Assembly (NCBI RefSeq): GCF_054482595.1
Contig: NZ_CM137008.1
Strand: one strand, 5' to 3'
DNA: 64,000 nucleotides
Shown one piece after another: positions 1,991 through 48,819 of this stretch (positions are counted from its first letter, which is position 1; the number at the start of each line of letters is the position of its first letter). Under the pieces are notes generated by a model. The model did not search any database, was not told where the DNA came from, and saw only the letters and a list, made by a program, of their open reading frames with translations. A program made the translations under genes and the position numbers.

Positions 1991-2005
1991 CATATCACAA
2001 AACTA

Positions 2006-6283: not shown

Positions 6284-6352
6284 AATTACCTCTCGCTTTT
6301 CTGCAATAAAAAAGGCGCCATTTCTGGCGCCCGTATTGGGGTTATAAAAATT

Positions 6353-9829: not shown

Positions 9830-9889
9830 TCGTCATGCTCCATATACGACAAAACCGCCCGCAGGCGGTTTCACATAAAACGTTTTGCA

Positions 9890-11202: not shown

Positions 11203-11207
11203 GGTAT

Positions 11208-15624: not shown

Positions 15625-15639
15625 CGCTGACTCTCCGGA

Positions 15640-17358: not shown

Positions 17359-17369
17359 ACATCCCCCTT

Positions 17370-17723: not shown

Positions 17724-17734
17724 AGCGCCTCCCG

Positions 17735-18133: not shown

Positions 18134-18174
18134 GGACTCCTCCACAGAGAGAAAATGGCCCCGAAGGGCCATGA

Positions 18175-19200
18175 TTACGCCAGTTGTACGGACACGAACT
18201 CATCAGGATCAGCCAGCAGCATCAGCGGTGCTGACTGAATCATGGTGAACTCACGCGCCGGATCGCCGGATGTCTTCCAGTTTTTCGGATAACGGGGAGA
18301 CGCATTAATACCCTCACTCAATGCATCCGCATCCTGAATACAGCCATAGGTGCGCAGACCGCGTGCCTGAGTGTTCCCCAGCACCATCGTGTTGTCCGGC
18401 AGGAAGTTCTTTTTGACACCGTTTTCCACGTACTGTCCGGAATACACGACGATGGCCACATCGCCATACATCCCCTTATAGGACACCGCTTTACCCAGGT
18501 CTTTCACCGCTGTCTCCAGCTCGGAATGAGAGCCGCGACGGGTATCCAGCTTCTCCTTGACGGCCTTGAAGGAACGGAACAGCGCCCAGCCTTTCGGATC
18601 GAACACGATGATATTCACCACACCGCTGGCGTTCAGCGCGTAGGCTTCGATATCGTCGGTCGGGTCATACGTGGACTTGTCACGCTTGCTCCACTCCGTG
18701 CCGCCGGACTGCGTGATGTTATTCGCCGCACTGCGGCCCATATCCACCTCAACCGGATCGAAGGCTTCACCGGTCATGGTGTATTTGCCTTTAAGCACGG
18801 CAGAAACTGCCTGCATCTCTTCGACCTGGGCAATGGCCAGCTCTTCGTCACGCATGTTCTGCATGATGATGCGACGGCGACGGTAAGCCGGATCCGCCAG
18901 ATTCTGCGGATCTTCATCCGGCAGGCGACGCAGGGTCATCTGCGGATTCACTTCATGCTTCGGCTTGACATATCCCGGCGTAAATTCAGAGGTGGAGCCG
19001 CCACGGGAGCGGATAACCTCACCGGAAACAATCGGCGAAACGTACAGCGCCATGTTTACCAGTCCAGGAATTTGTGAGAGATAGACTTTCTCCGTGGTGA
19101 AGGGATAGCTCTCACGGAAAAAGAGACGCAGAAACAGCGGATCAAACTTAAATTTCTGCTCATTTGCCGCCAGCAGCTGGGCGGTTGTGTACATCGACAT
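18175..19200 (-). CDS. E: Major capsid protein E
   Basis: Sequence MSMYTTAQLLAANEQKFKFDP matches lambda gpE; start placed at this Met (341 aa). Confidence 0.95.
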   Translation of the reverse strand: MSMYTTAQLLAANEQKFKFDPLFLRLFFRESYPFTTEKVYLSQIPGLVNMALYVSPIVSGEVIRSRGGSTSEFTPGYVKPKHEVNPQMTLRRLPDEDPQNLADPAYRRRRIIMQNMRDEELAIAQVEEMQAVSAVLKGKYTMTGEAFDPVEVDMGRSAANNITQSGGTEWSKRDKSTYDPTDDIEAYALNASGVVNIIVFDPKGWALFRSFKAVKEKLDTRRGSHSELETAVKDLGKAVSYKGMYGDVAIVVYSGQYVENGVKKNFLPDNTMVLGNTQARGLRTYGCIQDADALSEGINASPRYPKNWKTSGDPAREFTMIQSAPLMLLADPDEFVSVQLA

Positions 19201-19255
19201 AAAAAAATCCCGTAAAAAAAGCCGCACAGGCGGCCTTTAGTGATGAAGGGTAAAG

Positions 19256-19594
19256 TTAAACGATGCTGATTGCCGTTCCGGCAAACGCGGTCCGTTTTTT
19301 CGTCTCGTCGCTGGCAGCCTCCGGCCAGAGCACATCCTCATAACGGAACGTGCCGGACTTGTAGAACGTCAGCGTGGTGCTGGTCTGGTCAGCAGCAACC
19401 GCAAGAATGCCAACAGCAGCACCGTCGGTGGTGCCATCCCACGCAACCAGCTTACGGGTGGAGGTGTCCAGCATTAGCGGGGTCATTGCAGGCGCTTTCG
19501 CACTCAATCCGCCGGGCGCGGTTGCGGTATGAGCCGGGTCACTGTTGCCCAGCGGCTGGTAATGGGTAAAGGTTTCTTTGCTCATCATAAACAT
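19256..19594 (-). CDS. D: Head decoration protein D (exact start Met uncertain)
   Basis: [10 protein letters not shown]...AGTAISIV matches lambda gpD. Confidence 0.9.
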
Positions 19595-19597
19595 CCC

Positions 19598-20203
19598 TTA
19601 CACTGGTGTGTTCAGCAAATCGTTAACGGCATCAGATGCCGGGTTACCTGCAGCCAGCGGTGCCGGTGCCCCCTGCATCAGACGATCCAGCGCAGTGTCA
19701 CTGCGCGCCTGTGCACTCTGTGGTGCTGCGGCCAGAATGCGGCGTGCCGTTTCCACGGTCATACCGGGGGTTTCTGCCAGCACGCGGGCCTGTTCTTCGC
19801 GTCCGTGAGCCTCCTCACAGTTGAGGATCCCCATAATGCGGCTGTTTTCTGCCGCAACCGCTGCGGTGATCTGCGCGTTCACGTCCGGCTGCACCGCGCT
19901 GGCGTTTTCGCCCTCCGTCGCTGACACCACATCAGTAACATCAGCCTGCGAAGCAGTGGCTGAAACAGTTGTTGATTGAGTCTCTTTGGTCATTCGCCCT
20001 CCTGAGAGACGGGATTTACGTGCATCCAGTGCCTCACGCATAACGGTGATCGCATCGGTGCTGTTAACAAGTTCATCAGCCAGTCCGGCATCAATGGCCT
20101 CCTGACCGCTGTACACTGCAGCCTCGGTATCCAGAACAGCCTGCACGGACAGGCCGGTATATGCCGATACCTTCTGCGCAAACATCTGGCGGGTTGCATC
20201 CAT
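19598..20203 (-). CDS. nu3: Scaffolding protein Nu3 (in-frame nested in 3' part of C; 201 aa)
   Basis: Internal Met MDATRQMFAQ exactly 201 codons before the shared stop, as in lambda. Confidence 0.75.
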   Translation of the reverse strand: MDATRQMFAQKVSAYTGLSVQAVLDTEAAVYSGQEAIDAGLADELVNSTDAITVMREALDARKSRLSGGRMTKETQSTTVSATASQADVTDVVSATEGENASAVQPDVNAQITAAVAAENSRIMGILNCEEAHGREEQARVLAETPGMTVETARRILAAAPQSAQARSDTALDRLMQGAPAPLAAGNPASDAVNDLLNTPV

Positions 20204-20897
20204 CCGGGATTGCAGTGTTTCCCGGACGTCATCCGGAAGATGGCTGTAGGGGTTGCCATCCACCTTATGGCTGCCGCTGTAAATCAGCGTGATTTCCACG
20301 CCCTGTTTCTCCAGCGCAGCACCGTAATTACTGTGAGCCATCATGACGCCGATGGAGCCTGTCCGGGCGGTCTGTGTGACCAGACGCCGGGAGGCGGCAC
20401 TGGCAAGCAGCTGACCTGCACTACAGTTCATGTCGTTGGCCAGCGCCCATACCGGTTTTATGTCACGCACACGGGCGATGATGTCAGCGCAATCAAATAC
20501 CCCCGCCACCATCCCGCCTGGCGTGTCCATATCGAGCAGAATGCCGTCCACCATCGGATCGCTGGCAGCCTGTTGCAGACGGGCGATAATGCCGTTGTAA
20601 CCGGTCATCCCCGAATACGGCTGCAGCGCCCGCGTCCGGCTGACCAGCGTGCCGGACACCGGCAGCACGGCGATGCCATTCATGACCTGATAACTGCGGG
20701 CCTGTCGTGGCCCGTCATCATCACCGGATAACGCCAGCGTCGCGGGTGACTCTCCGGCAGTCAGGCTGTCACCTGACACCGCATCCGTCAGGCGGCTTAT
20801 CCCAATCTGGCCTGCAAGCGCACAAAAGAAAACCCGCGCATAGGCGGGTTCAAGCATCAGCGGCTCATTAAAGGCCATGCTGGCAATATGCGGGAGA

Positions 20898-20917
<20 letters not shown>
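19598..20917 (-). CDS. C: Capsid assembly protease C (start inferred at GTG; 439 aa)
   Basis: VTAELRNLPHIASMAFNEP aligns with lambda gpC N-terminus; the ORF-track upstream ATG extension is probably not used. Confidence 0.8.
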
Positions 20918-24598
<3,681 letters not shown>

Positions 24599-24624
<26 letters not shown>

Positions 24625-25144
24625 TCAGCAACCCCGGTATCAGTTCATCCAGCGCGGCTGCTTTGTTCATGGCTTTGATGATATCCCGTTTCAGGAAATC
24701 AACATGTCGGTTTTCCAGTTCCGGAAAACGCCGCTGCACCGACAGGGGGATCCCGTCGAGAATACTGGCAATTTCACCTGCGATCCGCGACAGCACGAAA
24801 GTACAGAATGCGGTTTCCACCACTTCAGCGGAGTCTCTGGCATTTTTCAGCTCCTGTGCGTCGGCCTGCGCACGCGTAAGTCGATGGCGTTCGTACTCAA
24901 TAGTCCCTGGCTGGAGATCTGTCTCGCTGGCCTGCCGCAGTTCTTCAACTTCCCGGCGCAGCTTTTCGTTCTCAATTTCAGCATCCCTTTCGGCATACCA
25001 TTTTATGACGGCGGCAGAGTCATAAAGCACCTCATTACCCTTGCCACCGCCTCGCAGAACGGGCATTCCCTGTTCCTGCCAGTTCTGAATGGTACGGATA
25101 CTCGCACCGAAAATGTCAGCCAGCTGCTTTTTGTTGACTTCCAT
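24599..25144 (-). CDS. nu1: Terminase small subunit Nu1
   Basis: 181-aa ORF MEVNKKQLADIFGASIRTIQNWQEQGMP (winged HTH), lambda length. Confidence 0.95.
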
Positions 25145-25345
25145 TGTTCATTCCACGGACAAAAACAGAGAAAGGAAACGACAGAGGCCAAAAAGCTCGC
25201 TTTCAGCACCTGTCGTTTCCTTTCTTTTCAGAGGGTATTTTAAATAAAAACATTAAGTTATGACGAAGAAGAACGGAAACGCCTTAAACCGGAAAATTTT
25301 CATAAATAGCGAAAACCCGCGAGGTCGCCGCCCCGTAACCTGTCG
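25145..25345. other. cos: cos region (cosB next to Nu1, cosN, cosQ side)
   Basis: Reverse complement of remembered lambda left-end sequence read directly; 12-nt cohesive end GGGCGGCGACCT present as aggtcgccgccc at 25322..25333. Confidence 0.85.
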
Positions 25346-25532
25346 GATCGCCGGAAAGGACCCGCAAAATGATAATAATTATCATCTACATGTCACAACG
25401 TGCATCTACGCAATCAAACCACGTCAAATAATCAATTATGACGCAGATATCGTATTAATTGATCTGCATCAACTTAACGTAAAAACAACTTCAGACAATA
25501 CAAATCAGCGACACTGAATACGGGACAACCTC

Positions 25533-25766
25533 ATGTCAACGAAGAACAGAACCCGCAGAACAACAACCCGCAACATCCGCTTTCCTAACCAAATGATTGA
25601 ACAAATTAACATCGCTCTTGATCAAAAAGGGTCCGGGAATTTCTCAGCCTGGGTCATTGAAGCCTGCCGCCGGAGACTGTGCTCAGAAAAAAGAGTTTCT
25701 CCTGAAGCAAACAAAGAAAAGAGTGACATTACTGAATTGCTCAGAAAACAGATCAGACCAGATTGA
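25533..25766 (+). CDS. Small ribbon-helix-helix-like protein (possibly DUF3950-like), cos-proximal cargo
   Basis: 77-aa ORF; motif RNIRFPNQMIEQINIAL resembles RHH beta-strand/helix; opposite strand to late genes. Confidence 0.5.
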   Translation: MSTKNRTRRTTTRNIRFPNQMIEQINIALDQKGSGNFSAWVIEACRRRLCSEKRVSPEANKEKSDITELLRKQIRPD

Positions 25767-25807
25767 AGCAATTTAGATAATCGTGCAGACTACGCCCCTC
25801 ATATCAC

Positions 25808-26233
25808 ATGGAAGGTACTACAATGGCTCAGGTTGCCATTTTTAAACAAATATTCGATAAAGTGCGAAATAATTTAAACTATCACTGGTTTTATTCTGAA
25901 CTAAAACGTCACAATGTCTCACATTACATTTACTATTTAGCTACAGAGAATATTCATCTTGTTCTTGAAAACGATAATACGGTTTTAATAAAAGGACAGG
26001 GTAAGGTTGTAAATGTAAGATTTTCAAAAAATAAATGCCTTATAGAAGCCACCTTAAAAGGATTCAAATCAGGAGAGTTATCATTTTACGAATACAGGAA
26101 AAATCTTGCTACAGCAGGGGTTTTCAGATGGATTACAAATATCCACGAAAACAAAAGGTATTACTATACCTTTGATAATTCATTACTCTTTACTGAGAAC
26201 ATTCAGAACACTACACAAATATTTCCGCACTAA
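25808..26233 (+). CDS. Hypothetical protein, possibly DUF1398/YbcV-like, cos-proximal cargo
   Basis: 141-aa AT-rich ORF; family assignment from memory only, unverified. Confidence 0.5.
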
Positions 26234-35122: not shown

Positions 35123-35830
35123 ATGGTTCAGAATGAAAAAGTGCGCAAAGAATTCGCCCAGCGGCTAGCGCAAGCCTGTAAAGAAGCTGGTCTTGATGAA
35201 CATGGTAGGGGTATGGCCATAGCCCGTGCCCTTTCTCTTTCGTCCAAAGGCGTTAGCAAATGGTTTAATGCTGAGTCTTTACCGCGTCAGGAAAAAATGA
35301 ATGCGCTTGCGAAATTTCTAAACGTTGATGTTGTTTGGCTTCAGCACGGCACTTCGTTAAATGGAGCGAATGATGAAGATACTCTTTCATTTGTTGGCAA
35401 ATTAAAAAAAGGGTTAGTGCGCGTGGTTGGTGAGGCAATTCTTGGTGTTGATGGTGCCATCGAGATGACCGAAGAGCGCGATGGGTGGCTCAAGATTTAT
35501 AGTGATGATCCAGATGCCTTTGGTCTTCGTGTGAAAGGAGACAGCATGTGGCCCAGAATAAAATCAGGAGAATATGTACTCATTGAGCCTAACACCAAAG
35601 TATTCCCGGGGGATGAGGTGTTTGTCAGAACCGTTGAAGGACACAACATGATCAAGATTCTTGGCTATGACAGAGATGGAGAATACCAATTTACAAGCAT
35701 CAACCAGGACCACAGGCCAATAACGTTACCTTATCATCAAGTAGCAAAGGTGGAGTATGTGGCTGGTATTCTGAAGCAATCTCGTCATCTGGATGACATC
35801 GAGGCAAGGGAGTGGCTGAAAAGTTTGTGA
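35123..35830 (+). CDS. cI: CI-type prophage repressor (HTH plus LexA/S24 peptidase-like C-terminal domain), non-lambda immunity
   Basis: 235-aa ORF; N-terminal HTH and C-terminal LexA/S24-like autocleavage domain (GDSM motif); differs from remembered lambda cI. Confidence 0.85.
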   Translation: MVQNEKVRKEFAQRLAQACKEAGLDEHGRGMAIARALSLSSKGVSKWFNAESLPRQEKMNALAKFLNVDVVWLQHGTSLNGANDEDTLSFVGKLKKGLVRVVGEAILGVDGAIEMTEERDGWLKIYSDDPDAFGLRVKGDSMWPRIKSGEYVLIEPNTKVFPGDEVFVRTVEGHNMIKILGYDRDGEYQFTSINQDHRPITLPYHQVAKVEYVAGILKQSRHLDDIEAREWLKSL

Positions 35831-35938
35831 CTTCAAGTACGCGACAAGCCCCGTCCTTCAGGGCGTGGAGGATGTCAAAATAACTTTAAATAACACACCA
35901 CCAACATTTAACACATTGAATTAAAAAACCTACAATAT

Positions 35939-36274
35939 TTGATGAGAGGCGTTATGGAACCGGTCAAAATTAAACCATCTGTGGATTATATTGAAACCTA
36001 TGCGGACTTCGCTAGTTTTGCTCCACTACCGGGAGCGGAAAAAAATCTCATTTGTATACATTTTATCGCAAACAAGTCAATACCTGCGGTACTATCCCAA
36101 AATGATATACCAGATCAACCAGGTAGAGCGAATATGCAGATAGGCTCTGTAAATGAACTCAATCAGCAATGCACTGTGATAATGCCAATGGCACAACTAA
36201 AGGCTCTTCAGGAGAATATAGTTCTTCTTTTCGAACAATTAGAGGCACAAAACTCTAATGGAGCGAAGTCGTAA
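35939..36274 (+). CDS. Hypothetical protein A of the cI-downstream operon (likely start at MEPVKIK, 35954; about 106 aa)
   Basis: ORF preceded by gagagg SD-like sequence; stop overlaps next start (TAATG); no recognisable domain. Confidence 0.65.
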   Translation: MMRGVMEPVKIKPSVDYIETYADFASFAPLPGAEKNLICIHFIANKSIPAVLSQNDIPDQPGRANMQIGSVNELNQQCTVIMPMAQLKALQENIVLLFEQLEAQNSNGAKS

Positions 36275-36957
36275 TGCAACAACCGGAAGAAGTAGGTGAT
36301 TTAACTATTACTTACAAAACATCAAGTATTGTTAAACCACTGCAAGTTTCCCTGAATAACGTTAATACTCGCGATTTCATGATGTTCATGGAAACAGCAA
36401 AAGGTAATCTGTTTTCTACGCCTATTTCCTCTTATTCACCAAAAAACATGGTGGATGATGCGACCAATTCCCAGCTAACTGCTACAATCGTAGATAAAGG
36501 AGGGGTTGCCGATTGTAAAGGACAATCTAATGTTATCCCACCGTACGAGGAAACTCCTATACAGGGAACCGCAATGTCCGATTTGAGCAGAAACGAAATA
36601 CAGGCACTTCTGAAGGCAAATAAAGCTGAAGTGGATGCAGTGGCCTCAAAAATGCAGGCTGATATGGCCAAATGGCGTGAACTAATGGCTTCAGATATAA
36701 AGGAGATGAAGCATTTAGTTGTTACTCAGCACGAACAAATCAACAGTCGTCTGGACATACAATCGAGTAGAATTGAGAGTGCCCTTGACTCCCAATCAAA
36801 AAAGATCGATGCAGCTCTTTCTGTTCAAGAGGCAAAGTTAGAAGGTAAGCTTAGTGATGTTAAGCTTGATATAATCAAATGGGCCCTTGGCTTGCCAGCA
36901 TTAGCATTTGCTGTATATAAAATCTACGGATTGCTCTCTGGAGTCTCAACCCCCTAA
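36274..36957 (+). CDS. Hypothetical protein B of the cI-downstream operon: coiled-coil protein with C-terminal transmembrane anchor (227 aa)
   Basis: ORF translationally coupled to the upstream gene; heptad-like stretch in residues ~110-200; hydrophobic tail IIKWALGLPALAFAVYKIYGLLSGV. Confidence 0.7.
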   Translation: MQQPEEVGDLTITYKTSSIVKPLQVSLNNVNTRDFMMFMETAKGNLFSTPISSYSPKNMVDDATNSQLTATIVDKGGVADCKGQSNVIPPYEETPIQGTAMSDLSRNEIQALLKANKAEVDAVASKMQADMAKWRELMASDIKEMKHLVVTQHEQINSRLDIQSSRIESALDSQSKKIDAALSVQEAKLEGKLSDVKLDIIKWALGLPALAFAVYKIYGLLSGVSTP

Positions 36958-36963
36958 TACACA

Positions 36964-36989
36964 CCCGGCCTCAGTGCCGGGTTTTCTTT
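36964..36989 (+). terminator. Rho-independent terminator after the cI-downstream operon (tIMM-like)
   Basis: cccggc ctcagt gccggg followed by ttttcttt. Confidence 0.7.
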
Positions 36990-37198
36990 GCCCAACGTTC
37001 GCCCACCTAAAAACACATAATCGATTGTATTTATTGAAAAACTGATAGATACAACTTGCTAAACAGTGCAACCCTGATCCCTGCCCCATCACCTTCATCC
37101 TCAACATTTACAAAAATAAAATACCTTATATATCAAAACCATATCTCGAGAAAACGAATGAACAACAAAATTTCGTACTTATGGTTCTTGATTGTATC

Positions 37199-37227
37199 GA
37201 ACCAATAGTTCATTATTATCACCATCA
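37199..37227 (+). promoter_or_regulatory. Candidate pL (-35 TTGATT, 17-nt spacer, -10 CATTAT) with overlapping oL-like sites
   Basis: Read in sequence; tcgtacttatggttc motif shared with oR region. Confidence 0.4.
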
Positions 37228-37263
37228 GCAGGACGCTGGAAGCCAAACGGAACAGACTGGCAG

Positions 37264-37308
37264 GCTCTTTAAACAACGTCGAACTCTCGACTACGTGGCT
37301 GAAAAGCC
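37264..37308 (+). promoter_or_regulatory. nutL (boxA GCTCTTT ... boxB hairpin GGCUGAAAAGCC)
   Basis: gctctttaaacaacg...ctacgtggctgaaaagcc aligns with nutR candidate. Confidence 0.6.
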
Positions 37309-37407
37309 AGATCACCCAACCACATAAGCTGTGGGATGCAATGCCGAAGCAACCGTCTCAGGAGGAGCTTCGAGATTGCATCGCCAAAGTTTATTCGGGA
37401 GGAATCT

Positions 37408-37680
37408 ATGTCCAGAAAAACAAAATTTAAAGGCACCGCAGCTTCTCGCCGTAGAGCCCGTCGCGCAAATCTGCAAAGTCAGGAGGCGATCAGCTCCGAC
37501 AAGCTACACAGACCAACCCCTTCACGAGTGGTCTTGCAATGCAAGCGCAAACCAGCAATGAGAGCAGAAGTTATAACTCTGACAACGTTGACCAGAAAAT
37601 ATGAAGGTTCAACTTGTCTTCCGAACGTAGCTCTTTACGCGGCAGGCTACCGGAAATCAAAACAACTGACGGCGAGATGA
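37408..37680 (+). CDS. N: N-type transcription antiterminator with N-terminal arginine-rich motif
   Basis: Strong SD gggagg before ATG; MSRKTKFKGTAASRRRARRANLQ arginine-rich motif; position downstream of pL/nutL. Confidence 0.75.
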   Translation: MSRKTKFKGTAASRRRARRANLQSQEAISSDKLHRPTPSRVVLQCKRKPAMRAEVITLTTLTRKYEGSTCLPNVALYAAGYRKSKQLTAR

Positions 37681-37696
37681 TAAATTAATTTGCTAA

Positions 37697-38278
37697 TTAC
37701 TTGTTTTTGCCATGCTTATCCTGAGCGATAAGTTCATCCATAAGACTGTCTTTCTTCCCAGCAAACCTAATGTAGCACTCATTTCTATAGCGTTCCGGGA
37801 TAACAAAACGGTCGATTTCAGGATATCCAGTAGCAGAAGGTACCCGAATAAGAAGCCCTTTTTCGAGCAATGAGATTGCTTCAGGGCTTCCCTTTTCTGT
37901 CTTTAGCTGGTTATTAGCGGCTACAGCGAATGCCAAATACGCTCTTTCTCCAAGAGTTAACGAATCAAACAAATCTTGCACGTATTTCTCTTCTTTAGAT
38001 TTGCGCTTCTGAGCAGCGAATATCTCAATTCTTTCAGTCACAGCGTGATAAGCGGAATTAACAACGCCGTTAAGCACATAGCTAACGCAAAACAACAGGA
38101 TGTAATACATCCAGTAATGAGGAAGGATTTCTGGATTATGCAGGTTTATCCATTCTTTTACGCTTACAGGCATAACAATAATCAATATGATCAGGATGAT
38201 TAGCATATGAATCAACTGTTTAAGTGTCATTCCTTGCAGGAAAAAATGCATTAGTTCCTGCCACCATGAGTTGTTCAT
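37697..38278 (-). CDS. sieB: Superinfection exclusion protein B-like inner membrane protein
   Basis: 193-aa ORF with N-terminal hydrophobic helices, convergent with N; lambda sieB position/orientation from memory. Confidence 0.5.
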   Translation of the reverse strand: MNNSWWQELMHFFLQGMTLKQLIHMLIILIILIIVMPVSVKEWINLHNPEILPHYWMYYILLFCVSYVLNGVVNSAYHAVTERIEIFAAQKRKSKEEKYVQDLFDSLTLGERAYLAFAVAANNQLKTEKGSPEAISLLEKGLLIRVPSATGYPEIDRFVIPERYRNECYIRFAGKKDSLMDELIAQDKHGKNK

Positions 38279-38492
38279 CGGCGTTTCTCTTTTGCTCTCT
38301 GTAGGGGTGAATAGAGTTTATCCGATTTCTCGCTGTAGGGGTACACGAGAACCACCGAGCCTGATGTGGTTAAAAGACAGGCATACTAATAAACACTGCA
38401 CTGTGTATTCATTCCAACGAGTGAATACACTGAGCAATGTCGCTCGTAACTAAACAGGAGCCGACTTGTTCTGATTATTGGAAATCTTCTTT

Positions 38493-38518
38493 GCCCTCCA
38501 ATGTGAGGGCGATTTTTT
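38493..38518 (+). terminator. Rho-independent terminator in pL operon (tL1-like)
   Basis: gccctc caatgtg agggc followed by gatttttta. Confidence 0.6.
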
Positions 38519-38538
38519 ATCTGTGAGGATATGAATAG

Positions 38539-38907
38539 ATGTCAAACATCAAAAAATACATCATTGATTACGACTGGAAAGCATCAATAGAAATTGAAAT
38601 CGACCATGACGTAATGACAGAGGAAAAACTTCACCAGATTAATAATTTCTGGTCAGACTCTGAATACCGACTCAATAAACACGGCTCTGTATTAAATGCT
38701 GTATTAATCATGCTGGCGCAACATGCTCTGCTTATAGCAATTTCAAGCGACTTAAATGCATATGGTGTTGTGTGTGAGTTCGACTGGAATGATGGAAATG
38801 GTCAGGAAGGATGGCCTCCAATGGATGGTAGCGAAGGAATAAGAATTACCGATATCGATACATCAGGAATATTTGATTCAGATGATATGACTATCAAAGC
38901 CGCCTGA
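38539..38907 (+). CDS. ea10: Ea10-like protein (122 aa)
   Basis: Length identical to lambda Ea10 and position upstream of cIII. Confidence 0.65.
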   Translation: MSNIKKYIIDYDWKASIEIEIDHDVMTEEKLHQINNFWSDSEYRLNKHGSVLNAVLIMLAQHALLIAISSDLNAYGVVCEFDWNDGNGQEGWPPMDGSEGIRITDIDTSGIFDSDDMTIKAA

Positions 38908-38979
38908 GCGCGGCGTTACCGCATACCAATAACGCTTCACTCGAGGCGTTTTTCGTTATGTATAAATAAGGAGCACACC

Positions 38980-39144
38980 ATGCAATATGCCATTGCAGGG
39001 TGGCCTGTTGCTGGCTGCCCTTCCGAATCTTTACTTGAACGAATCACCCGTAAATTACGTGACGGATGGAAACGCCTTATCGACATACTTAATCAGCCAG
39101 GAGTCCCAAAAAATGGATCAAACACTTATGGCTATCCAGACTAA
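38980..39144 (+). CDS. cIII: CIII (54 aa; below ORF-track threshold)
   Basis: Manual translation [54 protein letters not shown]. Confidence 0.9.
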   Translation: MQYAIAGWPVAGCPSESLLERITRKLRDGWKRLIDILNQPGVPKNGSNTYGYPD

Positions 39145-39256
39145 ATTCACTATCGCCACTTTTATTGGCGATGAAAAGATGTTTCGTGAGGCCGTCGACG
39201 CTTATAAAAAATGGATATTAATACTGAAACTGAGATCAAGCAAAAGCATTCACTAA
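39113..39256 (+). CDS. kil: Kil (47 aa; host killing, FtsZ inhibitor)
   Basis: [47 protein letters not shown] is the 3' part of an artefactual 89-aa track ORF. Confidence 0.85.
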
Positions 39257-39627
39257 CCCCCTTTCCTGTTTTCCTAATCAGCCCGGCATTTCGCGGGCGA
39301 TATTTTCACAGCTATTTCAGGAGTTCAGCCATGAACGCTTATTACATTCAGGATCGTCTTGAGGCTCAGAGCTGGACGCGTCACTACCAGCAGATCGCCC
39401 GTGAAGAGAAAGAGGCAGAACTGGCAGACGACATGGAAAAAGGTCTGCCCCAGCACCTGTTTGAATCACTCTGCATCGATCATTTACAACGCCACGGGGC
39501 CAGCAAAAAAGCCATTACCCGTGCGTTTGATGACGATGTTGAGTTTCAGGAGCGCATGGCAGAACACATCCGGTACATGGTTGAAACCATTGCTCACCAC
39601 CAGGTTGATATTGATTCAGAGGTATAA
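39211..39627 (+). CDS. gam: Gam (RecBCD inhibitor)
   Basis: 138-aa ORF, lambda length/sequence. Confidence 0.95.
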
Positions 39628-39632
39628 AACGG

Positions 39633-40418
39633 ATGAGTACAGCACTCGCAACGCTGGCTGGGAAGCTGGCTGAACGCGTCGGCATGGATTCTGTCGACCC
39701 ACAGGAACTGATCACCACTCTTCGCCAGACGGCATTTAAAGGTGATGCCAGCGATGCGCAGTTCATCGCATTGCTGATCGTCGCCAACCAGTACGGCCTT
39801 AATCCGTGGACGAAAGAAATTTACGCCTTCCCTGACAAGCAGAACGGCATCGTTCCGGTGGTGGGCGTTGATGGCTGGTCCCGTATCATCAATGAAAACC
39901 AGCAGTTTGATGGCATGGACTTTGAGCAGGACAATGAATCCTGCACATGCCGGATTTACCGCAAGGACCGCAATCATCCGATCTGCGTTACCGAGTGGAT
40001 GGATGAATGCCGCCGCGAACCATTCAAAACCCGCGAAGGCAGAGAAATCACGGGGCCGTGGCAGTCGCATCCCAAACGGATGTTACGGCATAAAGCCATG
40101 ATTCAGTGTGCCCGTCTCGCCTTCGGATTTGCTGGTATCTATGACAAGGATGAAGCCGAGCGCATTGTCGAAAATACCGCATACACTGCAGAACGTCAGC
40201 CGGAACGCGACATCACTCCGGTTAACGATGAAACCATGCAGGAGATTAACACTCTGCTGATTGCCCTGGATAAAACATGGGATGACGACTTATTGCCGCT
40301 CTGTTCCCAGATATTTCGCCGCGACATTCGAGCATCGTCAGAACTGACACAGGCCGAAGCAGTGAAAGCTCTTGGATTCCTGAAACAGAAAGCCACTGAG
40401 CAGAAGGTGGCAGCATGA
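39633..40418 (+). CDS. bet: Bet (Red-beta single-strand annealing protein)
   Basis: 261-aa ORF, lambda length/sequence. Confidence 0.95.
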
Positions 40419-41095
40419 CACCGGACATTATCCTGCAGCGTACCGGGATCGACGTGAGAGCTGTCGAACAGGGGGATGATGCGTGGCACAAATTACGGCT
40501 CGGCGTCATCACCGCTTCAGAGGTTCACAATGTGATAGCAAAACCCCGCTCCGGAAAGAAATGGCCTGACATGAAAATGTCCTACTTCCACACCCTGCTT
40601 GCCGAGGTTTGCACCGGTGTGGCTCCGGAAGTTAACGCTAAGGCGCTGGCCTGGGGAAAACAGTACGAGAACGACGCCAGAGCCCTCTTTGAGTTCACTT
40701 CCGGCGTGAATGTTACTGAATCCCCGATCATCTATCGCGACGAAAGTATGCGCACCGCCTGCTCTCCCGATGGTTTATGCAGTGACGGCAACGGCCTTGA
40801 ACTGAAATGCCCGTTTACCTCCCGGGATTTCATGAAGTTCCGGCTCGGTGGTTTCGAGGCCATAAAGTCGGCTTACATGGCCCAGGTGCAGTACAGCATG
40901 TGGGTGACGCGAAAAGATGCCTGGTACTTTGCCAACTATGACCCGCGCATGAAGCGTGAAGGCCTGCATTATGTCGTGATTGAGCGGAATGAAAAGTACA
41001 TGGCGAGTTTTGACGAGATGGTGCCGGAGTTCATCGAAAAAATGGACGAGGCACTGGCTGAAATTGGTTTTGTATTTGGGGAGCAATGGCGATGA
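40415..41095 (+). CDS. exo: Exo (Red-alpha 5'-3' exonuclease)
   Basis: 226-aa ORF, lambda length/sequence. Confidence 0.95.
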
Positions 41096-41274
41096 CGCAT
41101 CCTCACGATAATATCCGGGTAGGCGCAATCACTTTCGTCTACTCCGTTACAAAGCGAGGCTGGGTATTTCCCGGCCTTTCTGTTATCAGAAATCCACTGA
41201 AAGCACAGCGGCTGGCTGAGGAGATAAATAATAAACGGGGAGCTGTATGCACAAAGCATCTCCCGTTGAGTTAA
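41092..41274 (+). CDS. Orf60a-like small protein
   Basis: [19 protein letters not shown]; lambda order after exo. Confidence 0.7.
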
Positions 41275-41438
41275 GAACGAGTATCGAGATGGCACATAGC
41301 CTCGCTCAAATTGGAGTCAGGTTTGTGCCAATACCAGTAGAAACAGACGAAGAATTTCATACGTTAGCCGCATCCCTTTCACAAAAGCTGGAAATGATGG
41401 TGGCGAAAGCAGAAGCAGATGAGAGAGACCAGGTATGA
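41247..41438 (+). CDS. Orf63-like small protein
   Basis: 63-aa ORF, lambda order. Confidence 0.7.
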   Translation: MHKASPVELRTSIEMAHSLAQIGVRFVPIPVETDEEFHTLAASLSQKLEMMVAKAEADERDQV

Positions 41439-41514
41439 CAACCACGGAATGCATTTTTCTGGCAGCGGGCTTCATATTCTGTGTGCTTATGCTTGCCGAC
41501 ATGGGACTTGTTCA

Positions 41515-41730
41515 ATGACACCTCAGCAGGAAAACGCCCTTCGCAGTATTGCCCGTCAGGCTAATTCTGAAATCAAAAAAGCCAGACAGCAGTTTCCGGA
41601 TAAAAACGTCGATGACATTTGCCGTAGCGTACTGAAGAAGCACCGCGAAACGGTAACGCTGATGGGATTCACACCGACTCATTTAAGCCTGGCGATCGGC
41701 ATGTTAAACGGCGTCTTTAAGGAACGGTGA
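41515..41730 (+). CDS. Orf61-like small protein (start uncertain)
   Basis: MTPQQENALRSIARQANSEIKKARQQF; within a longer track ORF. Confidence 0.6.
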   Translation: MTPQQENALRSIARQANSEIKKARQQFPDKNVDDICRSVLKKHRETVTLMGFTPTHLSLAIGMLNGVFKER

Positions 41731-41828
41731 GCATGAAAAACAAAATCATCATGGAGCTACAGGCTCCTTTTTTATTATTCGCATTCACCCTCAAGCGTAT
41801 TAACCAACAATTCAGGGATTAATGAAAG

Positions 41829-42050
41829 ATGGCAGACATCATTGATTCAGCATCAGAAATTGAAGAATTACAGCGCAATACAGCAATAAAAATGCGTCGT
41901 CTGAACTACCAGACTATATCCGCCACTCATTGTTGTGAGTGTGGCGATCCCATAGATGAACGAAGACGCCTGGTCGTTCAGGGTTGTCGGACTTGTGCAA
42001 GTTGCCAGGAGGATCTGGAGCTTATCAGTAAACAGAGAGGTTCGAAGTGA
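41829..42050 (+). CDS. TraR/DksA-family C4 zinc-finger protein (lambda Orf73-like)
   Basis: 73 aa with CxxC...CxxC motif (CCECG ... CRTCASC). Confidence 0.8.
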   Translation: MADIIDSASEIEELQRNTAIKMRRLNYQTISATHCCECGDPIDERRRLVVQGCRTCASCQEDLELISKQRGSK

Positions 42051-42454
42051 GCGAAATTAACTCTCAGGCACTGCGTGAAGCGGCAGAGAAAGCCGGTGAA
42101 GATAAGTGGCAGGCTAAAAAAATAAATGGTGATTTTTTCGTTATTCGTCACGGTAGTTATACAAGACAGCATGGCTACACATCGTATCAACCCATTGCGG
42201 AGATTGATTGTAAGCCAGTCCGGGATTTTGTTGCCAAGGCTAATCCGGCTACCGTGCTGGAATTACTGGATGAACTGGAAGCAGCAAAAAAGCGCATTGC
42301 AGAACTGGAAGCGCGGGAAATACTGCTCCCGGAACGTAGCAGCATGCTTCATCGAACAGATTTTCACGATGATTACCAAACGGTAATGGCATACAAAGTT
42401 TCTGAAGTCATCGATGCAATCCGCGCTACTGGCATTCGCATCAAAGGAGAGTGA
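42047..42454 (+). CDS. Hypothetical early-left protein (possibly Ea22-like)
   Basis: 135-aa ORF, coiled-coil segment; no firm motif. Confidence 0.5.
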   Translation: MSEINSQALREAAEKAGEDKWQAKKINGDFFVIRHGSYTRQHGYTSYQPIAEIDCKPVRDFVAKANPATVLELLDELEAAKKRIAELEAREILLPERSSMLHRTDFHDDYQTVMAYKVSEVIDAIRATGIRIKGE

Positions 42455-43211
42455 GATGATTCACTACCACGGTGGGCCTATTACTCCTGATACGTGCGCA
42501 ATGAGGGCATGGAAAGGGCGACATGCGTTTATCAGTTTTGCGCATTCAGGCCAGATCAATCTCGCGGCTGAATACTGTCAGTCGTTCGCGCTGGACAACG
42601 GTGCATTCACCGCCTGGAAAGCAGCTGGCAAAAACAAAATCGACTGGAGCGATTACTACGAGTTTGTTGCTCGCTGGAAGAATCACCCAGGATTCGATTT
42701 TGCCATTATCCCGGATATTATTGATGGCGGAGAGGAGGAAAATGATGCGCTTCTGAATGAGTGGCCTCACGGAAAACTAGCTGGCGTTCCAGTGTGGCAC
42801 ATGAATGAAAGTGACGCGCGATTTATTCATTTGTGCAATGAGTTTCCGCGAGTGGCTATCGGTAGTTGTGGCGACTATGACGTAAAGCGCCCAACTCTTG
42901 CGGTAGCCAGAATGAAAGACCTGATTCGTCACATTGTTGATGGGCATGGTCAGCCGGTTACGAAACTACATGGATTGCGCATGTTAAATCCGCTGATATT
43001 CACAAAATTACCCTTAGCCAGCGCAGATAGTACGAACGTCGCTCGAAACATCGGTATTGATAAAGCCTGGTCTAGGGCTTATGCACCTGCAAGTAAAGAG
43101 ACACGCGCAGCATTAATGGTAGAACGGATTGAGGCACACAATAGCCCTGGTTCTCTTGCGTATTGTGAACAACGCGACCGCTTTGAAATGCAATTGCAAC
43201 TAGCAGTTTAA
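42414..43211 (+). CDS. Hypothetical protein (likely start MIHYHGG at 42456; about 251 aa)
   Basis: Long ORF with typical codon usage; no motif I can assign with confidence. Confidence 0.6.
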   Translation: MQSALLAFASKESEMIHYHGGPITPDTCAMRAWKGRHAFISFAHSGQINLAAEYCQSFALDNGAFTAWKAAGKNKIDWSDYYEFVARWKNHPGFDFAIIPDIIDGGEEENDALLNEWPHGKLAGVPVWHMNESDARFIHLCNEFPRVAIGSCGDYDVKRPTLAVARMKDLIRHIVDGHGQPVTKLHGLRMLNPLIFTKLPLASADSTNVARNIGIDKAWSRAYAPASKETRAALMVERIEAHNSPGSLAYCEQRDRFEMQLQLAV

Positions 43212-43221
43212 GGACTAACAA

Positions 43222-44019
43222 ATGACCACTATTACCAAAGAACGTATTGAATTGTTCATTAAAAATCCGCTTGAAAACGGACTTACTCGTGGCGAACAAA
43301 TGGAACTGGCACGAATTGCACTGGCATCACTGGAACGCGAACTGATTCGCCACGAGCATGCCAAATGGTCTGACTCCACATTTGGCTGCGTTGGCCCCAT
43401 TGGTCCACTGAAACACCTCTCAAAAGAGGCTCTGGAAGCCGCAGCCGAACCAGACGATCTCAGCGAGTGGGCTGATATGCATTTCCTGTTGTGGGATGCA
43501 CAGCGCCGTGCTGGCATCAGCGATGCTGAAATTACCGCTGCTATGGAAGATAAATTGAAGATCAACATGGAGCGCCAGTGGCCTGAACCAATAGATGGTG
43601 AGCCTCGCTTGCACATTAAAGAACCCGGCAACTCTCCGGTAATTCCGGATGGTTTATCCACGGTATGCGCTGAGGCTTATCAGGTTGTAGGAGTTATGGC
43701 AGATGCGCTTGGTGTATTCGGTGATGCAGCAGTACAGAAAGTTCTGGATAACCTGTCACAGCAAAAACTTGTTCACAGAGATGTGCTGCCGTTCTCGCTT
43801 CCGGTGACTCCGGATGGTTGGATAAGCTGTAGTGAGCGAATGCCGAAAGAAACGGGTGACATTATTGTTGTTTCGGATGGCATTGTAATGTCCGGGATTT
43901 CTTATTCTCGTCGTGACGGGTTCTATATAGCCGCATTGGAGTACGACGACGATGAGCCAATTGGCGGTGTAACCCACTGGATGCCTCTACCAGAACCGCC
44001 TCGATTAAAGGAGCTATAA
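43222..44019 (+). CDS. Phage protein with C-terminal DUF551-like domain (N-terminal part possibly DUF550-like)
   Basis: 265-aa ORF; C-terminal W..C.ERMP ... VTHWMPLPEPP pattern typical of DUF551. Confidence 0.6.
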   Translation: MTTITKERIELFIKNPLENGLTRGEQMELARIALASLERELIRHEHAKWSDSTFGCVGPIGPLKHLSKEALEAAAEPDDLSEWADMHFLLWDAQRRAGISDAEITAAMEDKLKINMERQWPEPIDGEPRLHIKEPGNSPVIPDGLSTVCAEAYQVVGVMADALGVFGDAAVQKVLDNLSQQKLVHRDVLPFSLPVTPDGWISCSERMPKETGDIIVVSDGIVMSGISYSRRDGFYIAALEYDDDEPIGGVTHWMPLPEPPRLKEL

Positions 44020-44133
44020 TAGTGAACTATTATATCTATTTGTATTAAAAGAGTTTTTATAAAATAAATCTTCCAAAGCATGTAAAAACACTGTTAATCT
44101 TAACGTGTGTGAAACGTGAAGAGAGGTGTTGAA

Positions 44134-44415
44134 ATGAGCATTCATGATTTGTGTGAAGATCAAGAGCAATGGGCTATGCAGACCCTTATGGGATCAGGAG
44201 TTCTTGCAAGGTGCAGAATCCATAACGATGTAATTTTAGACAGCGGAAATGATGCTTCTTCTGCTTATAAATTAGGAACTTACCTATATCAAAAAGATAA
44301 TAGCTGCAACTTATTCAATACTCTTACTGAAGCCCGCGACGCAATAAAGGATGCATATGAATCGTATTGTGGGATCGATGATTGCCCACAATGCTCAAAA
44401 TACATTGACGATTAA
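44134..44415 (+). CDS. ea8.5: Ea8.5-like protein (93 aa; Cys-containing)
   Basis: Length matches lambda Ea8.5; C-terminal CPQC...IDD motif; start placed at MSIHDL. Confidence 0.6.
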   Translation: MSIHDLCEDQEQWAMQTLMGSGVLARCRIHNDVILDSGNDASSAYKLGTYLYQKDNSCNLFNTLTEARDAIKDAYESYCGIDDCPQCSKYIDD

Positions 44416-44503
44416 TAATATGAACAAGTAACTATCCTCGCACTCGCGGGGATTTCTTTTATCTGAACTCGCTACGGCGAGTTTTGTTTTATGGAGATGA
44501 TAA

Positions 44504-44671
44504 ATGCACTTCCGAGTTACAGGTGAATGGAATGGAGAACCATTCAACAGAGTTATCGAAGCCGAGAACATCAGCGACTGCTATGACCACTGGATGCTGT
44601 GGGCGCAGATAGCACATGCAGACGTAACCAATATTCGAATTGAAGAACTGAAAGAACACCAAGCCGCCTGA
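44504..44671 (+). CDS. Small ORF (55 aa) upstream of xis, followed by hairpin/T-run
   Basis: Manual translation MHFRVTGEWNGEPFNRVIEAENISDCYDHWMLWAQIAHADVTNIRIEELKEHQAA; below track threshold. Confidence 0.45.
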   Translation: MHFRVTGEWNGEPFNRVIEAENISDCYDHWMLWAQIAHADVTNIRIEELKEHQAA

Positions 44672-44710
44672 TGGCGGTTTTTTCTTGCGTGTAATTGCGG
44701 AGACTTTGCG

Positions 44711-44929
44711 ATGTACTTGACACTTCAGGAGTGGAACGCACGCCAGCGACGCCCAAGAAGCCTTGAAACAGTTCGTCGATGGGTACGCGAGTGCAGGATA
44801 TTCCCTCCTCCGGTTAAGGATGGAAGAGAGTATCTGTTCCACGAATCAGCGGTAAAGGTTGACTTAAATCGACCAGTAACAGGTAGCCTTTTGAAGAGGA
44901 TCAGAAATGGGAAGAAGGCGAAGTCATGA
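44711..44929 (+). CDS. xis: Excisionase Xis
   Basis: 72-aa ORF MYLTLQEWNARQRRPRSLETVRRWVRECRIFPPPV matches lambda Xis; 23-nt overlap with int. Confidence 0.95.
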   Translation: MYLTLQEWNARQRRPRSLETVRRWVRECRIFPPPVKDGREYLFHESAVKVDLNRPVTGSLLKRIRNGKKAKS

Positions 44930-45980
44930 GCGCCGGGATTTACCCCCTAACCTTTATATAAGAAACAATGGATATTACTGCTACAGGGACCCAAGGACGG
45001 GTAAAGAGTTTGGATTAGGCCGAGACAGGAGGATAGCAATCACTGAAGCAATACAGGCCAATATTGAGTTACTCTCAGACAGCGGACGCAAATCACTGAT
45101 AGACAGAATTAAAGGCGGTGACGCAATCACTCTTCATGTGTGGCTTGACCGATATGAAACAATCCTCACCGAAAGGGGGATCAGGCCGAAAACTCTACTC
45201 GACTACGCCAGCAAAATCAGGGCAATCCGAAGAAAATTGCCGGACAAACCGCTCACTGACATATCAACGAAAGAAGTGGCAGCAATGCTAAACACCTACG
45301 TAGCAGAAGGTAAAGCAGCTTCCGCAAAATTAATCAGGTCAACCCTTGTTGACGTTTTTCGTGAAGCAATAGCCGAGGGGCATGTGGCAACGAATCCGGT
45401 AACAGCAACCCGTACAGCAAAGTCAGAAGTAAGGCGCTCAAGGCTGACAGCTAATGAGTATGTCGAGATTTACCATGCAGCCGAACCTCTCCCTATCTGG
45501 CTAAGGCTGGCGATGGATTTGGCCGTCGTTACAGGGCAGAGAGTCGGCGATTTGTGCAGAATGAAATGGTCAGACATAAACGACAACCATCTTCACATTA
45601 AACAGAGTAAAACAGGGGCTAAACTCGCCATTCCGCTAACGCTAACGATTGACGCGCTCAATATCTCATTGGCTGATACACTACAGAAATGCAGGGAGGC
45701 CAGCAGCAGTGAAACTATAATCGCATCAAAGCATCACGATCCGCTTTCCCCGAAAACAGTATCAAAGTATTTTACAAAGGCGAGAAATGCATCTGGCCTC
45801 TCATTTGATGGAAACCCGCCAACATTCCATGAACTGCGTAGCCTGTCAGCGAGGCTATACCGGAACCAGATTGGCGATAAGTTTGCTCAACGTCTTCTCG
45901 GGCATAAATCAGATTCAATGGCGGCGCGGTATAGGGACAGCCGTGGACGGGAATGGGACAAAATTGAAATCGACAAATGA
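44907..45980 (+). CDS. int: Tyrosine integrase Int (lambda-type; N-terminal arm-binding domain lambda-identical, core-binding region divergent)
   Basis: 357-aa ORF; N-terminal ~55 aa identical to remembered lambda Int, divergence after residue ~56, conserved catalytic C-terminus (HELRSL ... LLGH ... Y). Confidence 0.95.
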   Translation: MGRRRSHERRDLPPNLYIRNNGYYCYRDPRTGKEFGLGRDRRIAITEAIQANIELLSDSGRKSLIDRIKGGDAITLHVWLDRYETILTERGIRPKTLLDYASKIRAIRRKLPDKPLTDISTKEVAAMLNTYVAEGKAASAKLIRSTLVDVFREAIAEGHVATNPVTATRTAKSEVRRSRLTANEYVEIYHAAEPLPIWLRLAMDLAVVTGQRVGDLCRMKWSDINDNHLHIKQSKTGAKLAIPLTLTIDALNISLADTLQKCREASSSETIIASKHHDPLSPKTVSKYFTKARNASGLSFDGNPPTFHELRSLSARLYRNQIGDKFAQRLLGHKSDSMAARYRDSRGREWDKIEIDK

Positions 45981-46074
45981 TTTTATTTTGACTAATAATG
46001 ACCTACTTACATTAATTTACTGATAATTAAAGAGATTTTAAATATACAACTTATTCACCTTAAGTGCACCGACC
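45981..46074. other. Int-proximal prophage/chromosome junction (attL-type site) and torS upstream region
   Basis: 94-bp AT-rich segment between int stop and torS start; core sequence cannot be defined without the other junction. Confidence 0.5.
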
Positions 46075-48819
46075 GTGAATTTAACCCTGACCCGAAGACT
46101 CTGGATGGGCTTTGCCCTGATGGCACTGTTAACCCTGACCAGTACCCTGGTGGGATGGTACAACCTGCGCTTTATCAGCCAGGTGGAAAAAGACAATACT
46201 CAGGCATTGATTCCTACCATGAATATGGCGCGCCAGTTGAGCGAAGCCAGCGCCTGGGAACTTTTCGCCGCGCAGAACCTGACCAGTGCCGATAACGAAA
46301 AGATGTGGCAGGCGCAGGGGCGAATGCTCACCGCACAAAGCCTGAAGATTAATGCGTTGCTGCAAGCGTTACGGGAACAAGGTTTTGATACCACCGCTAT
46401 TGAACAACAGGAGCAGGAGATCTCCCGTTCGTTACGTCAGCAAGGGGAACTGGTGGGGCAGCGTTTGCAACTGCGCCAGCAACAACAGCGACTCAGTCAG
46501 CAGATAGTCGCTGCCGCCGATGAGATCGCACGCCTGGCGCAAGGTCAGGCGAATAATGCGACAACTTCCGCTGGAGCGACCCAGGCCGGGATTTACGATT
46601 TGATCGAACAAGATCAGCGTCAGGCTGCTGAAAGTGCACTCGACCGGCTGATTGATATCGATCTTGAGTATGTTAACCAGATGAATGAACTGCGCCTTAG
46701 CGCCCTGCGGGTGCAGCAAATGGTGATGAATCTGGGGCTGGAACAGATCCAGAAAAATGCGCCAACGCTGGAAAGGCAGCTCAATAATGCGGTGAAAATT
46801 CTGCAACGTCGGCAAATACGCATTGAAGATCCGGGAGTTCGTGCGCAGGTCGCAACAACGTTAACTACCGTTAGCCAATATAGCGATCTGTTGGCGCTGT
46901 TCCAGCAGGACAGTGAAATCAGCAATCACCTGCAAACTCTCGCCCAAAATAATATCGCCCAGTTCGCGCAGTTTAGTAGCGAAGTCAGTCAGCTGGTCGA
47001 CACCATTGAGCTGCGCAATCAGCATGGACTGGCGCATCTGGAAAAAGCCAGTGCACGCGGGCAATACAGCCTGTTATTGCTGGGGATGGTTTCACTTTGC
47101 GCACTGATTCTGATCCTCTGGCGCGTGGTTTATCGCTCAGTCACGCGTCCACTTGCCGAACAAACGCAGGCGCTGCAACGGCTGCTGGACGGTGATATTG
47201 ACTCCCCTTTTCCGGAAACCGCTGGCGTACGGGAGCTGGATACCATCGGGCGGCTGATGGATGCGTTTCGCAGCAGTGTTCATGCACTGAATCGCCACCG
47301 CGAACAGCTGGCGGCGCAGGTCAAAGCACGTACAGCTGAATTGCAGGAACTGGTGATAGAACACCGACAGGCACGGGCGGAAGCAGAAAAAGCCAGCCAG
47401 GCAAAATCGGCGTTTCTGGCGGCGATGAGCCATGAGATCCGCACACCGCTGTACGGTATTCTCGGCACCGCACAGCTACTGGCAGATAACCCCACACTTA
47501 ACGCCCAGCGTGATGATTTGCGGGCAATTACTGACTCTGGTGAATCGTTGCTGACCATCCTCAACGATATTCTCGATTATTCGGCTATCGAAGCAGGTGG
47601 CAAGAATGTTTCGGTCAGCGATGAGCCCTTTGAACCGCGCCCGCTGCTGGAAAGTACCCTGCAATTAATGAGCGGACGGGTGAAAGGTCGCCCGATTCGC
47701 CTGGCAACGGCAATTGCCGATGATGTACCGAGCGCGTTAATGGGCGATCCGCGGCGTATTCGTCAGGTCATTACCAACCTGTTGAGCAACGCCCTGCGTT
47801 TTACTGACGAAGGGCAGATCGTTTTACGTAGCCGTACTGATGGTGAGCAATGGCTGGTCGAAGTGGAAGACAGCGGCTGCGGTATTGATCCCGCGAAACT
47901 GGCAGAAATCTTCCAGCCATTTATTCAGGTAAGTGGCAAACGCGGCGGCACCGGGCTGGGGCTGACTATCAGTAGCCGTCTGGCCCAGGCGATGGGCGGC
48001 GAACTGAGCGCCACCAGCACGCTGGAGGTTGGAAGCTGTTTTTGTTTACGCTTGCCGTTACGTGTTGCCACAGCACCCGCGCCAAAAACAGCCAATCAGG
48101 CGGTGCGTCTGGACGGTTTACGTTTGCTGTTAATTGAAGATAACCCGCTAACCCAGCGAATTACCGTTGAGATGCTGAACACCAGTGGTGCGCAGGTTGT
48201 TGCTATTGGCAATGCCGCGCAGGCTTTAGAGACACTGCAAAATAGCGAACCGTTTGCTGCCGCACTGGTGGATTTTGATCTGCCGGATATCGACGGCATT
48301 ACCCTTGCCCGGCAACTGGCACAGCAATATCCGTCGCTGGTTTTGATTGGCTTTAGCGCTCATGTCATTGACGAAACGCTGCGCCAGCGTACCAGTTCAC
48401 TATTTCGCGGGATTATCCCTAAACCGGTGCCGCGTGAAGTGCTCGGTCAGTTACTGGCGCACTATCTCCACCTGCAAGTCAATAACGATCTACCACTTGA
48501 TGTATCGCAACTCAATGAAGATGCTCAATTAATGGGGACGGAGAAGATCCACGAATGGCTGGCATTATTTAAACAACATGCCCTGCCGCTTCTCGATGAA
48601 ATCGACATTGCCCGCGCCAGCCAGGACAGCGAGAAAATAAAGCGTGCCGCGCATCAGCTAAAAAGCAGTTGCTCGAGTCTGGGAATGCGTAGCGCCAGTC
48701 AGCTATGCGCACAACTGGAGCAGCAGCCATTATCTGCCCCCCTTCCACACGAAGAAATTACACGCAGTGTTGCCGCTCTGGAAGCATGGTTGAATAAGAA
48801 AGACCTGAACGCGATTTGA
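46075..48819 (+). CDS. torS: TMAO sensor histidine kinase TorS
   Basis: 914-aa [24 protein letters not shown]; HisKA/HATPase/receiver/HPt architecture. Confidence 0.95.

Follow-up and report, generated by a model that had tools for sequence, protein, structure and literature searches.

An HK022-type integration module at the torS-proximal end of a lambda-like prophage in Escherichia coli

Introduction

The integrases of phages HK022 and lambda are the classical model of how a heterobivalent integrase can change its core-site specificity without losing arm-site recognition. A 64,000-nucleotide stretch of DNA (contig NZ_CM137008.1; 'the window' refers to all of it) carries an integrase gene directly 5' of torS, and an initial annotation took the product for a lambda-type Int with a switched core-site specificity, which raises the question of which site this enzyme recognises and whether that specificity is new. 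We conclude that the locus is, almost certainly, the right end, with int, of a lambda-like prophage that an HK022-type module put into the 82-bp torS-torT intergenic region of E. coli, which is the canonical attB of HK022. Carey et al. (2019, eLife) have already described this site, how often it is occupied and what that does to torS transcription, and the module described here is a well-characterised one at its normal site.

The integrase and excisionase genes

The phage side of the locus comprises the following features.

44661..44684, plus strand: terminator-like hairpin followed by a T-run, 5' of xis (consensus scan alone)
44685..44698, plus strand: TTGC-N6-TTGC box, the cII-binding motif of pI, just 5' of xis (read from the sequence)
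44711..44929, plus strand: xis, 72-aa excisionase (Pfam Exc, E=3.9e-41)
44907..45980, plus strand: int, HK022-type heterobivalent tyrosine integrase of 357 aa, complete ORF (ORF, Pfam, alignments to lambda and HK022 Int)
44907-45098, plus strand: arm-binding domain of Int, approximately codons 1-64
45099-45413, plus strand: core-binding domain of Int, codons 65-169
45414-45977, plus strand: catalytic domain of Int, codons 170-357

The predicted Int aligns over its full length to the lambda Int structures (PDB 5J0N and 1Z1G) and matches three Pfam families in the expected order: Arm-DNA-bind_1 (residues 1-68), the SAM-like core-binding Phage_int_SAM_1 (81-158) and Phage_integrase (179-346; E=2.5e-41). 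As the initial annotation had held, the catalytic motifs are retained, with all six residues R212, K235, H308, R311, H333 and Y342 in place (lambda numbering). Its statement that the first 55 or so residues are those of lambda also proved exact: in an alignment with wild-type Int translated from NC_001416, identity is 100% over residues 1-55, and the two proteins first part at L56/F56. Over the whole protein, 267 of 356 residues (75%) are shared, but unevenly, with 90.6% identity in residues 1-64, 69.5% in residues 65-169 and 72.2% in residues 170-356. The core-binding region is thus divergent, as had been proposed, but the divergence is not confined to it, the catalytic domain having diverged equally.

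At the DNA level, identity to lambda runs at 93-100% from xis to approximately position 45070 and falls abruptly to 60-69% beyond, a pattern that marks a sharp lambda/HK022 mosaic joint, judging from the alignment. Five positions at 45030-45062 (within 45027-45070) differ from both lambda and HK022, all of them synonymous; because these changes leave the protein unaltered, the arm-binding domain is conserved at the protein level. HK022 and the window differ at 53 nucleotides, of which 17 fall within the 105 nt of 45015-45119 (Int residues 56-71), and this cluster coincides with the mosaic joint and with the inter-domain linker.

The xis ORF overlaps int by 23 nt (44907-44929). Its product shares every residue with HK022 Xis (100%) and matches lambda Xis at 71 of 72 residues, G59S being the sole difference. 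Together with Int and the host proteins IHF and Fis, Xis would reverse integration and excise the prophage. At the position matching the TTGC-N6-TTGC box, the mEp235 annotation records a putative lambda cII binding site, and a pI promoter with this box would make int expression cII-dependent. Three terminator-like hairpins lie just 5' of xis on the plus strand (44434-44484 and 44661-44684), against 0.6 expected, and the last of them (44661-44684) directly adjoins the cII box of pI.

Core-site specificity of the integrase

With an identity to lambda that is complete over residues 1-55 and about 70% beyond them, the protein could at first sight be a lambda-derived Int whose diverged core-binding region is aimed at a new site 5' of torS, that is, an enzyme of undescribed specificity. 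Comparison with HK022 leaves this reading exceedingly improbable. Int is identical to HK022 Int at 345 of 357 residues (96.6%), and the 12 differences (residues 58, 59, 60, 62, 71, 78, 88, 117, 137, 187, 232 and 261) all lie away from the specificity positions and are concentrated around the inter-domain linker, with five of the 12 in or beside it (residues 58-62 and 71). Dorgai, Yagil and Weisberg reportedly showed in 1995 that positions 99, 282, 283, 287 and 319 suffice to give lambda Int the specificity of HK022. In our alignment the lambda residues N99, S282, G283, R287 and E319 are absent and Int carries D, P, K, K and R in their place, so that the specificity positions D99, P282, K283, K287, R319 and R329 are all of the HK022 type; N99D and H329R have been cited as lambda-to-HK022 specificity switches (PMC10863862). 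All known HK022 specificity residues are accordingly present, and, as detailed below, both P' arm and core match HK022 attP exactly and the insertion site is the published HK022 attB.

The same protein is found in E. coli strain 4FM and corresponds to RefSeq WP_000533666.1, an accession that annotates strain WAT too. When positions 44700-46080 were searched against phage genomes by megablast, the Stx1a-converting phages of O26 E. coli and H19J matched at 98.4-98.8% DNA identity, mEp235 and mEp506 at 96.2-96.3%, and the int-xis-attP region of HK022 at 96.1%, while lambda, 434 and HK97 matched at about 77%. The corresponding spot in mEp235 (96.2%) is annotated as 'prophage attachment site (type HK022)'. 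On these alignments the integrase is best described as an allele of HK022 Int and not as a new specificity variant. The switch of core-site specificity that the initial annotation had read from the lambda comparison is therefore borne out by the near-identity to HK022, a textbook case that it had missed.

The attL junction

To the right of int, the window contains the following features.

45973..46004, minus strand: predicted arm-type Int sites P'3 (45973-45982), P'2 (45985-45994) and P'1 (45995-46004), colinear with the lambda block
45981..46053, plus strand: phage P' arm, 73 bp from the int stop to the junction (HK022 identity)
46013..46025, minus strand: IHF-like site TATCAGTAAATTA at the lambda H' position (consensus WATCARNNNNTTR and position)
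46047..46067, plus strand: attL core, consisting of C' CAACTTA (46047-46053), overlap TTCACCT (46054-46060) and B TAAGTGC (46061-46067) (att alignment)
46075..48819, plus strand: torS, TMAO sensor kinase, full length (Pfam TorS_sensor_domain, HisKA, HATPase_c, Response_reg and Hpt)

We aligned nine attachment-site sequences: the window junction, HK022 attP, the empty torS-torT regions of K-12, IAI39 and O26 RM10386, and both junctions of the 4FM and Stx1a_11KH263 prophages. K-12 attB reads AACCTTT-TTCACCT-AAAGTGC and HK022 attP reads CAACTTA-TTCACCT-AAAGGAT. Set against the uninterrupted torS-torT region of K-12, the junction is an exact HK022 C'-O-B hybrid core: host attB sequence begins at 46061, with HK022 attP to the left of it and IAI39/O26 attB to the right. 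Integration is intergenic and directly 5' of torS, away from the gal-bio site, as the initial annotation had maintained. That annotation had also taken 45981..46074 for the torS start region that the prophage abuts. The prophage does abut torS, but 45981..46053 is phage P' arm, the crossover falls in 46054..46060, and 14 host bases precede the annotated GTG.

PMC7736782 gives the HK022 site as a 21-bp B-O-B' with a 7-bp overlap; the overlap TTCACCT was derived here from the att-site alignment. In hosts with T at the first base of B, attP and attB have only the seven bases TTCACCT in common, with mismatches on either side. The window attL carries the phage base to the left of TTCACCT and the host base to the right, and the attR of Stx1a_11KH263 is the reciprocal. 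Because attL and attR carry reciprocal flanking bases in this T-allele context, the crossover is confined to the 7 bp 46054..46060, and the TTCACCT crossover deduced from sequence matches the published overlap.

Strand exchange of this kind would follow from the known division of labour in heterobivalent integrases. The lambda-identical N-terminal domain of Int would bind arm-type sites, the HK022 residues of the core-binding and catalytic domains would shift core recognition away from the lambda core and toward that of HK022, and Int tetramers with IHF would bridge the arm and core sites. Exchange inside the 7-bp TTCACCT would then leave the attL, C'-O-B, that is observed at 46047-46067.

The lambda-like arm-binding domain and Xis would equally suit an Int of lambda specificity that inserted by chance at a secondary, non-gal-bio site. 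This explanation has next to no chance of being correct, given that positions 99, 282, 283, 287, 319 and 329 are of the HK022 type, that the core CAACTTA-TTCACCT is unlike the lambda overlap TTTATAC, and that the same int-torS junction (query 45700-46500, at least 80% coverage) is present in 191 of 5,426 complete E. coli genomes, EPEC E2348/69 among them.

A host polymorphism in the B half-site

The base T46061, the innermost of the B half-site, differs from the A found in both K-12 attB and HK022 attP, and it is the only base at which this B site departs from K-12. A synthetic empty attB carrying T found a 100% match in three unoccupied genomes, and IAI39 and O26 RM10386, whose sites are unoccupied, show T directly at this position; the Stx1a_11KH263 attL has it as well. 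T46061 is a natural host attB allele.

Two other origins for this base were considered and rejected. The 15-bp duplication annotated in LC744179 had suggested that T came from a variant phage attP, but the attR of both Stx1a_11KH263 and 4FM has A on the phage side, and the empty sites of IAI39 and O26 RM10386 have T. (Given T46061, the annotated '15-bp duplication' of LC744179 is imperfect.) An Int allele co-adapted to T was set aside since 4FM has an identical Int on an A-type attB.

Prophages occupy both alleles of the B site: the present one and those of O26 Stx1a lysogens sit at T, and that of 4FM at A. There is a slim chance, in our estimation, that the A/T polymorphism matters functionally, by changing the frequency of lysogenisation or excision, or torS output, between E. 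coli lineages. It could alter recombination or torS output because it adjoins the cleavage/overlap region and falls within the 5' leader of the torS transcript made from the phage promoter, and, since both alleles are found occupied, any such effect would be quantitative and not all-or-none.

The P' arm and torS

The 80 bases that follow the int stop, up to and including the overlap (45981..46060), are 100% identical to HK022 attP, and the 73-bp spacing between stop codon and junction is the one shown for HK022 (PMC6814406). The predicted block of arm-type sites reads ATGATTTTATTTTGACTAATAATGACCT in the window versus ATGATTTTATTTTGACTGATAGTGACCT in lambda, and an arm-consensus search matched at 45985 and 45995. 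The names P'1, P'2 and P'3 are those of lambda attP. Lambda-like P'1-P'3 sites are consistent with an arm-binding domain identical to that of lambda. The IHF consensus WATCARNNNNTTR is weak, with nine matches in the window against 4.5 expected, and the putative site at 46013-46025 was assigned by its position.

A sigma-70 consensus scan of the P' arm returned two weak matches (45970-45999 and 45998-46027) against 0.9 expected, and thus no evidence of a promoter; Carey et al. (2019) likewise saw no clear -10 or -35 element there (PMC6814406). In HK022 lysogens, experiments have shown that the P' arm holds an outward promoter and a start site from which torS is transcribed (PMC6814406). The inserted prophage comes between torS and both of its native start sites, as well as the IscR operator (Carey et al. 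2019, PMC6814406), and in lysogens, where torS is transcribed from the phage promoter of the P' arm, TorS is raised and the aerobic bet-hedging expression of torCAD is abolished (PMC6814406).

Because the P' arm is base-for-base that of HK022, the same rewiring of torS by a phage promoter is expected in the present strain: as a by-product of integration, torS would be severed from its native promoters and transcribed from the P' arm. The initial annotation had described torS as intact, which holds for the coding sequence, full length in the window, but not for its regulation, the gene being separated from the native promoters and the IscR site (PMC6814406).

The int stop is 94 nt from the annotated torS GTG at 46075, with the 14 host bases making up the host part of this gap. 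In torS lacZ fusions only a downstream ATG was used (Carey et al. 2019, PMC6814406), and here that ATG, as read from the sequence, is at 46105, which places the attL core 38 nt from the torS start, versus 8 nt if the GTG is taken. The ORF-based, RefSeq-style start at GTG 46075 is probably a mis-call for ATG 46105.

The prophage body and its far end

Leftward from the junction, the prophage continues to the edge of the window.

1..46053, no strand assigned: lambda-like prophage body, cut by the left edge of the window, with its attL side as the right end (alignment to the 4FM prophage)

Its genes are in lambda order, from tail, head and lysis through nin, replication, immunity and red to xis-int. 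Positions 1-47392 align to the torT-torS prophage of E. coli 4FM in a single BLAST alignment of 47,395 nt at 99.45% identity. The 4FM prophage is about 48.4 kb long and its attR would fall about 2.3 kb past the left edge of the window. A search of the window for the attR core AACCTTTTTCACCTAAAGGAT, with up to three mismatches, gave no match beyond attL, as did a search for a second copy of the LC744179 15-bp duplication, and K-12 torT had no BLAST match in the window. Since none of the three was found within it, the other junction lies outside, in agreement with the initial annotation. In 4FM, the nearest relative, the far end is beside torT, where attR reads gcgactc-AACATTT-TTCACCT-AAAGGAT at 57 bp from the torT start codon; the far junction of Stx1a_11KH263 beside torT is likewise B'-O-C.

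With attR absent from the window, the prophage could be defective or rearranged, with an intact HK022-type attL, int and xis but an attR lost or displaced, leaving the element fixed and unable to excise. Carey et al. found precedents in several strains with large torS-torT rearrangements in which attL is kept (PMC6814406). We regard this as improbable here, because 47.4 kb are collinear with the 4FM prophage, whose proper attR adjoins torT, and because the genes seen are all in lambda order with int and xis full-length.

Several genes of the prophage body are of separate interest. A 419-aa ORF at 618-1877 (plus strand), on the strand opposite to the late genes, is flanked by the tail-fibre genes and, outside the window, by attR. 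Its sole match is phrog_19262 (unknown function), Pfam and PADLOC giving none, which makes it a candidate for a moron or cargo gene. Two more hypothetical genes lie further left of it in 4FM. Directly 3' of the CI-like repressor gene (35123-35830), in the position of lambda rexA/rexB, are ORFs of 106 aa and 227 aa (35954-36957, plus strand). The 227-aa product matches phrog_14825 (unknown function) and, below threshold, a CCDC90-like Pfam family, the 106-aa product has no match, and neither has a significant PADLOC match; the pair could be an exclusion or defence cassette. At 42414-43211 (plus strand), a 265-aa protein matches phrog_887 (queuine tRNA-ribosyltransferase-like; E=7.6e-102), with no Pfam match, and may be a DpdA-type 7-deazaguanine DNA-modification enzyme. 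Its neighbour at 43222-44019 (plus strand) is a dATP/dGTP pyrophosphohydrolase fused to DUF551, and the collinear 4FM annotation has a PAPS-reductase-domain gene in the nin region. PADLOC scans of five cargo ORFs of the prophage had no usable outcome.

In the annotation of the collinear 4FM prophage, only about 570 bp separate the Q-like antiterminator from the holin (window ~27,700-29,050), and stx genes are not listed. The int-attL segment nevertheless shares 98.8% identity with that of O26 Stx1a-converting phages, an integration module common to otherwise different lambdoid phages.

Comparison with known systems

HK022 (AF069308, NC_002166; Yagil et al. 1989) is matched in the length and sequence of Int (357 aa, 96.6%), in Xis (identical), in the P' arm and C'-overlap (100%), in the torS-torT site, in an int gene that reads out toward torS and in the 73 bp between stop codon and junction. 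The differences are the 12 Int substitutions and the rest of the prophage, which is lambda-like, unlike the HK022/HK97-like structural genes of HK022. As these structural genes are lambda-like, the integration module alone is common to the two phages. With lambda (NC_001416) the prophage shares the heterobivalent architecture, Int residues 1-55, near-identical P'1-P'3 sites, an Xis one residue different and the same catalytic residues; it differs in having an Int of 75% identity with HK022 specificity residues, the TTCACCT overlap and the torS-torT attB in place of lambda's gal-bio.

The closest likenesses are among other prophages at torS-torT, with int-attL-torS junctions 95-99.6% identical in the O26:H11 Stx1a phages (LC744179-84), H19J, NRG 857C, WAT and 4FM. 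The 4FM prophage has the identical Int and is collinear throughout at 99.45%, differing in the B site (A versus T). Stx1a phages at torS-torT have been described in O26:H11 (PMC10042803), and the present prophage differs from them in being without stx. Carey et al. (2019, eLife, PMC6814406) give the torS-torT interval as the integration site of HK022, report a prophage there in about 5% of complete E. coli genomes, and state that all torS-torT prophages have HK022-like integrases reading toward torS with attL at the same position.

The discovery value of the locus is small, as the occupancy of torS-torT in a few percent of E. coli and the effect on torS and torCAD were published in 2019. For annotation, the right boundary of the prophage can be fixed to 46054-46060 and the torS start flagged. 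For the biology of the strain, the prediction is that it would over-express torS from a phage promoter and lose aerobic torCAD bet-hedging, like HK022 lysogens.
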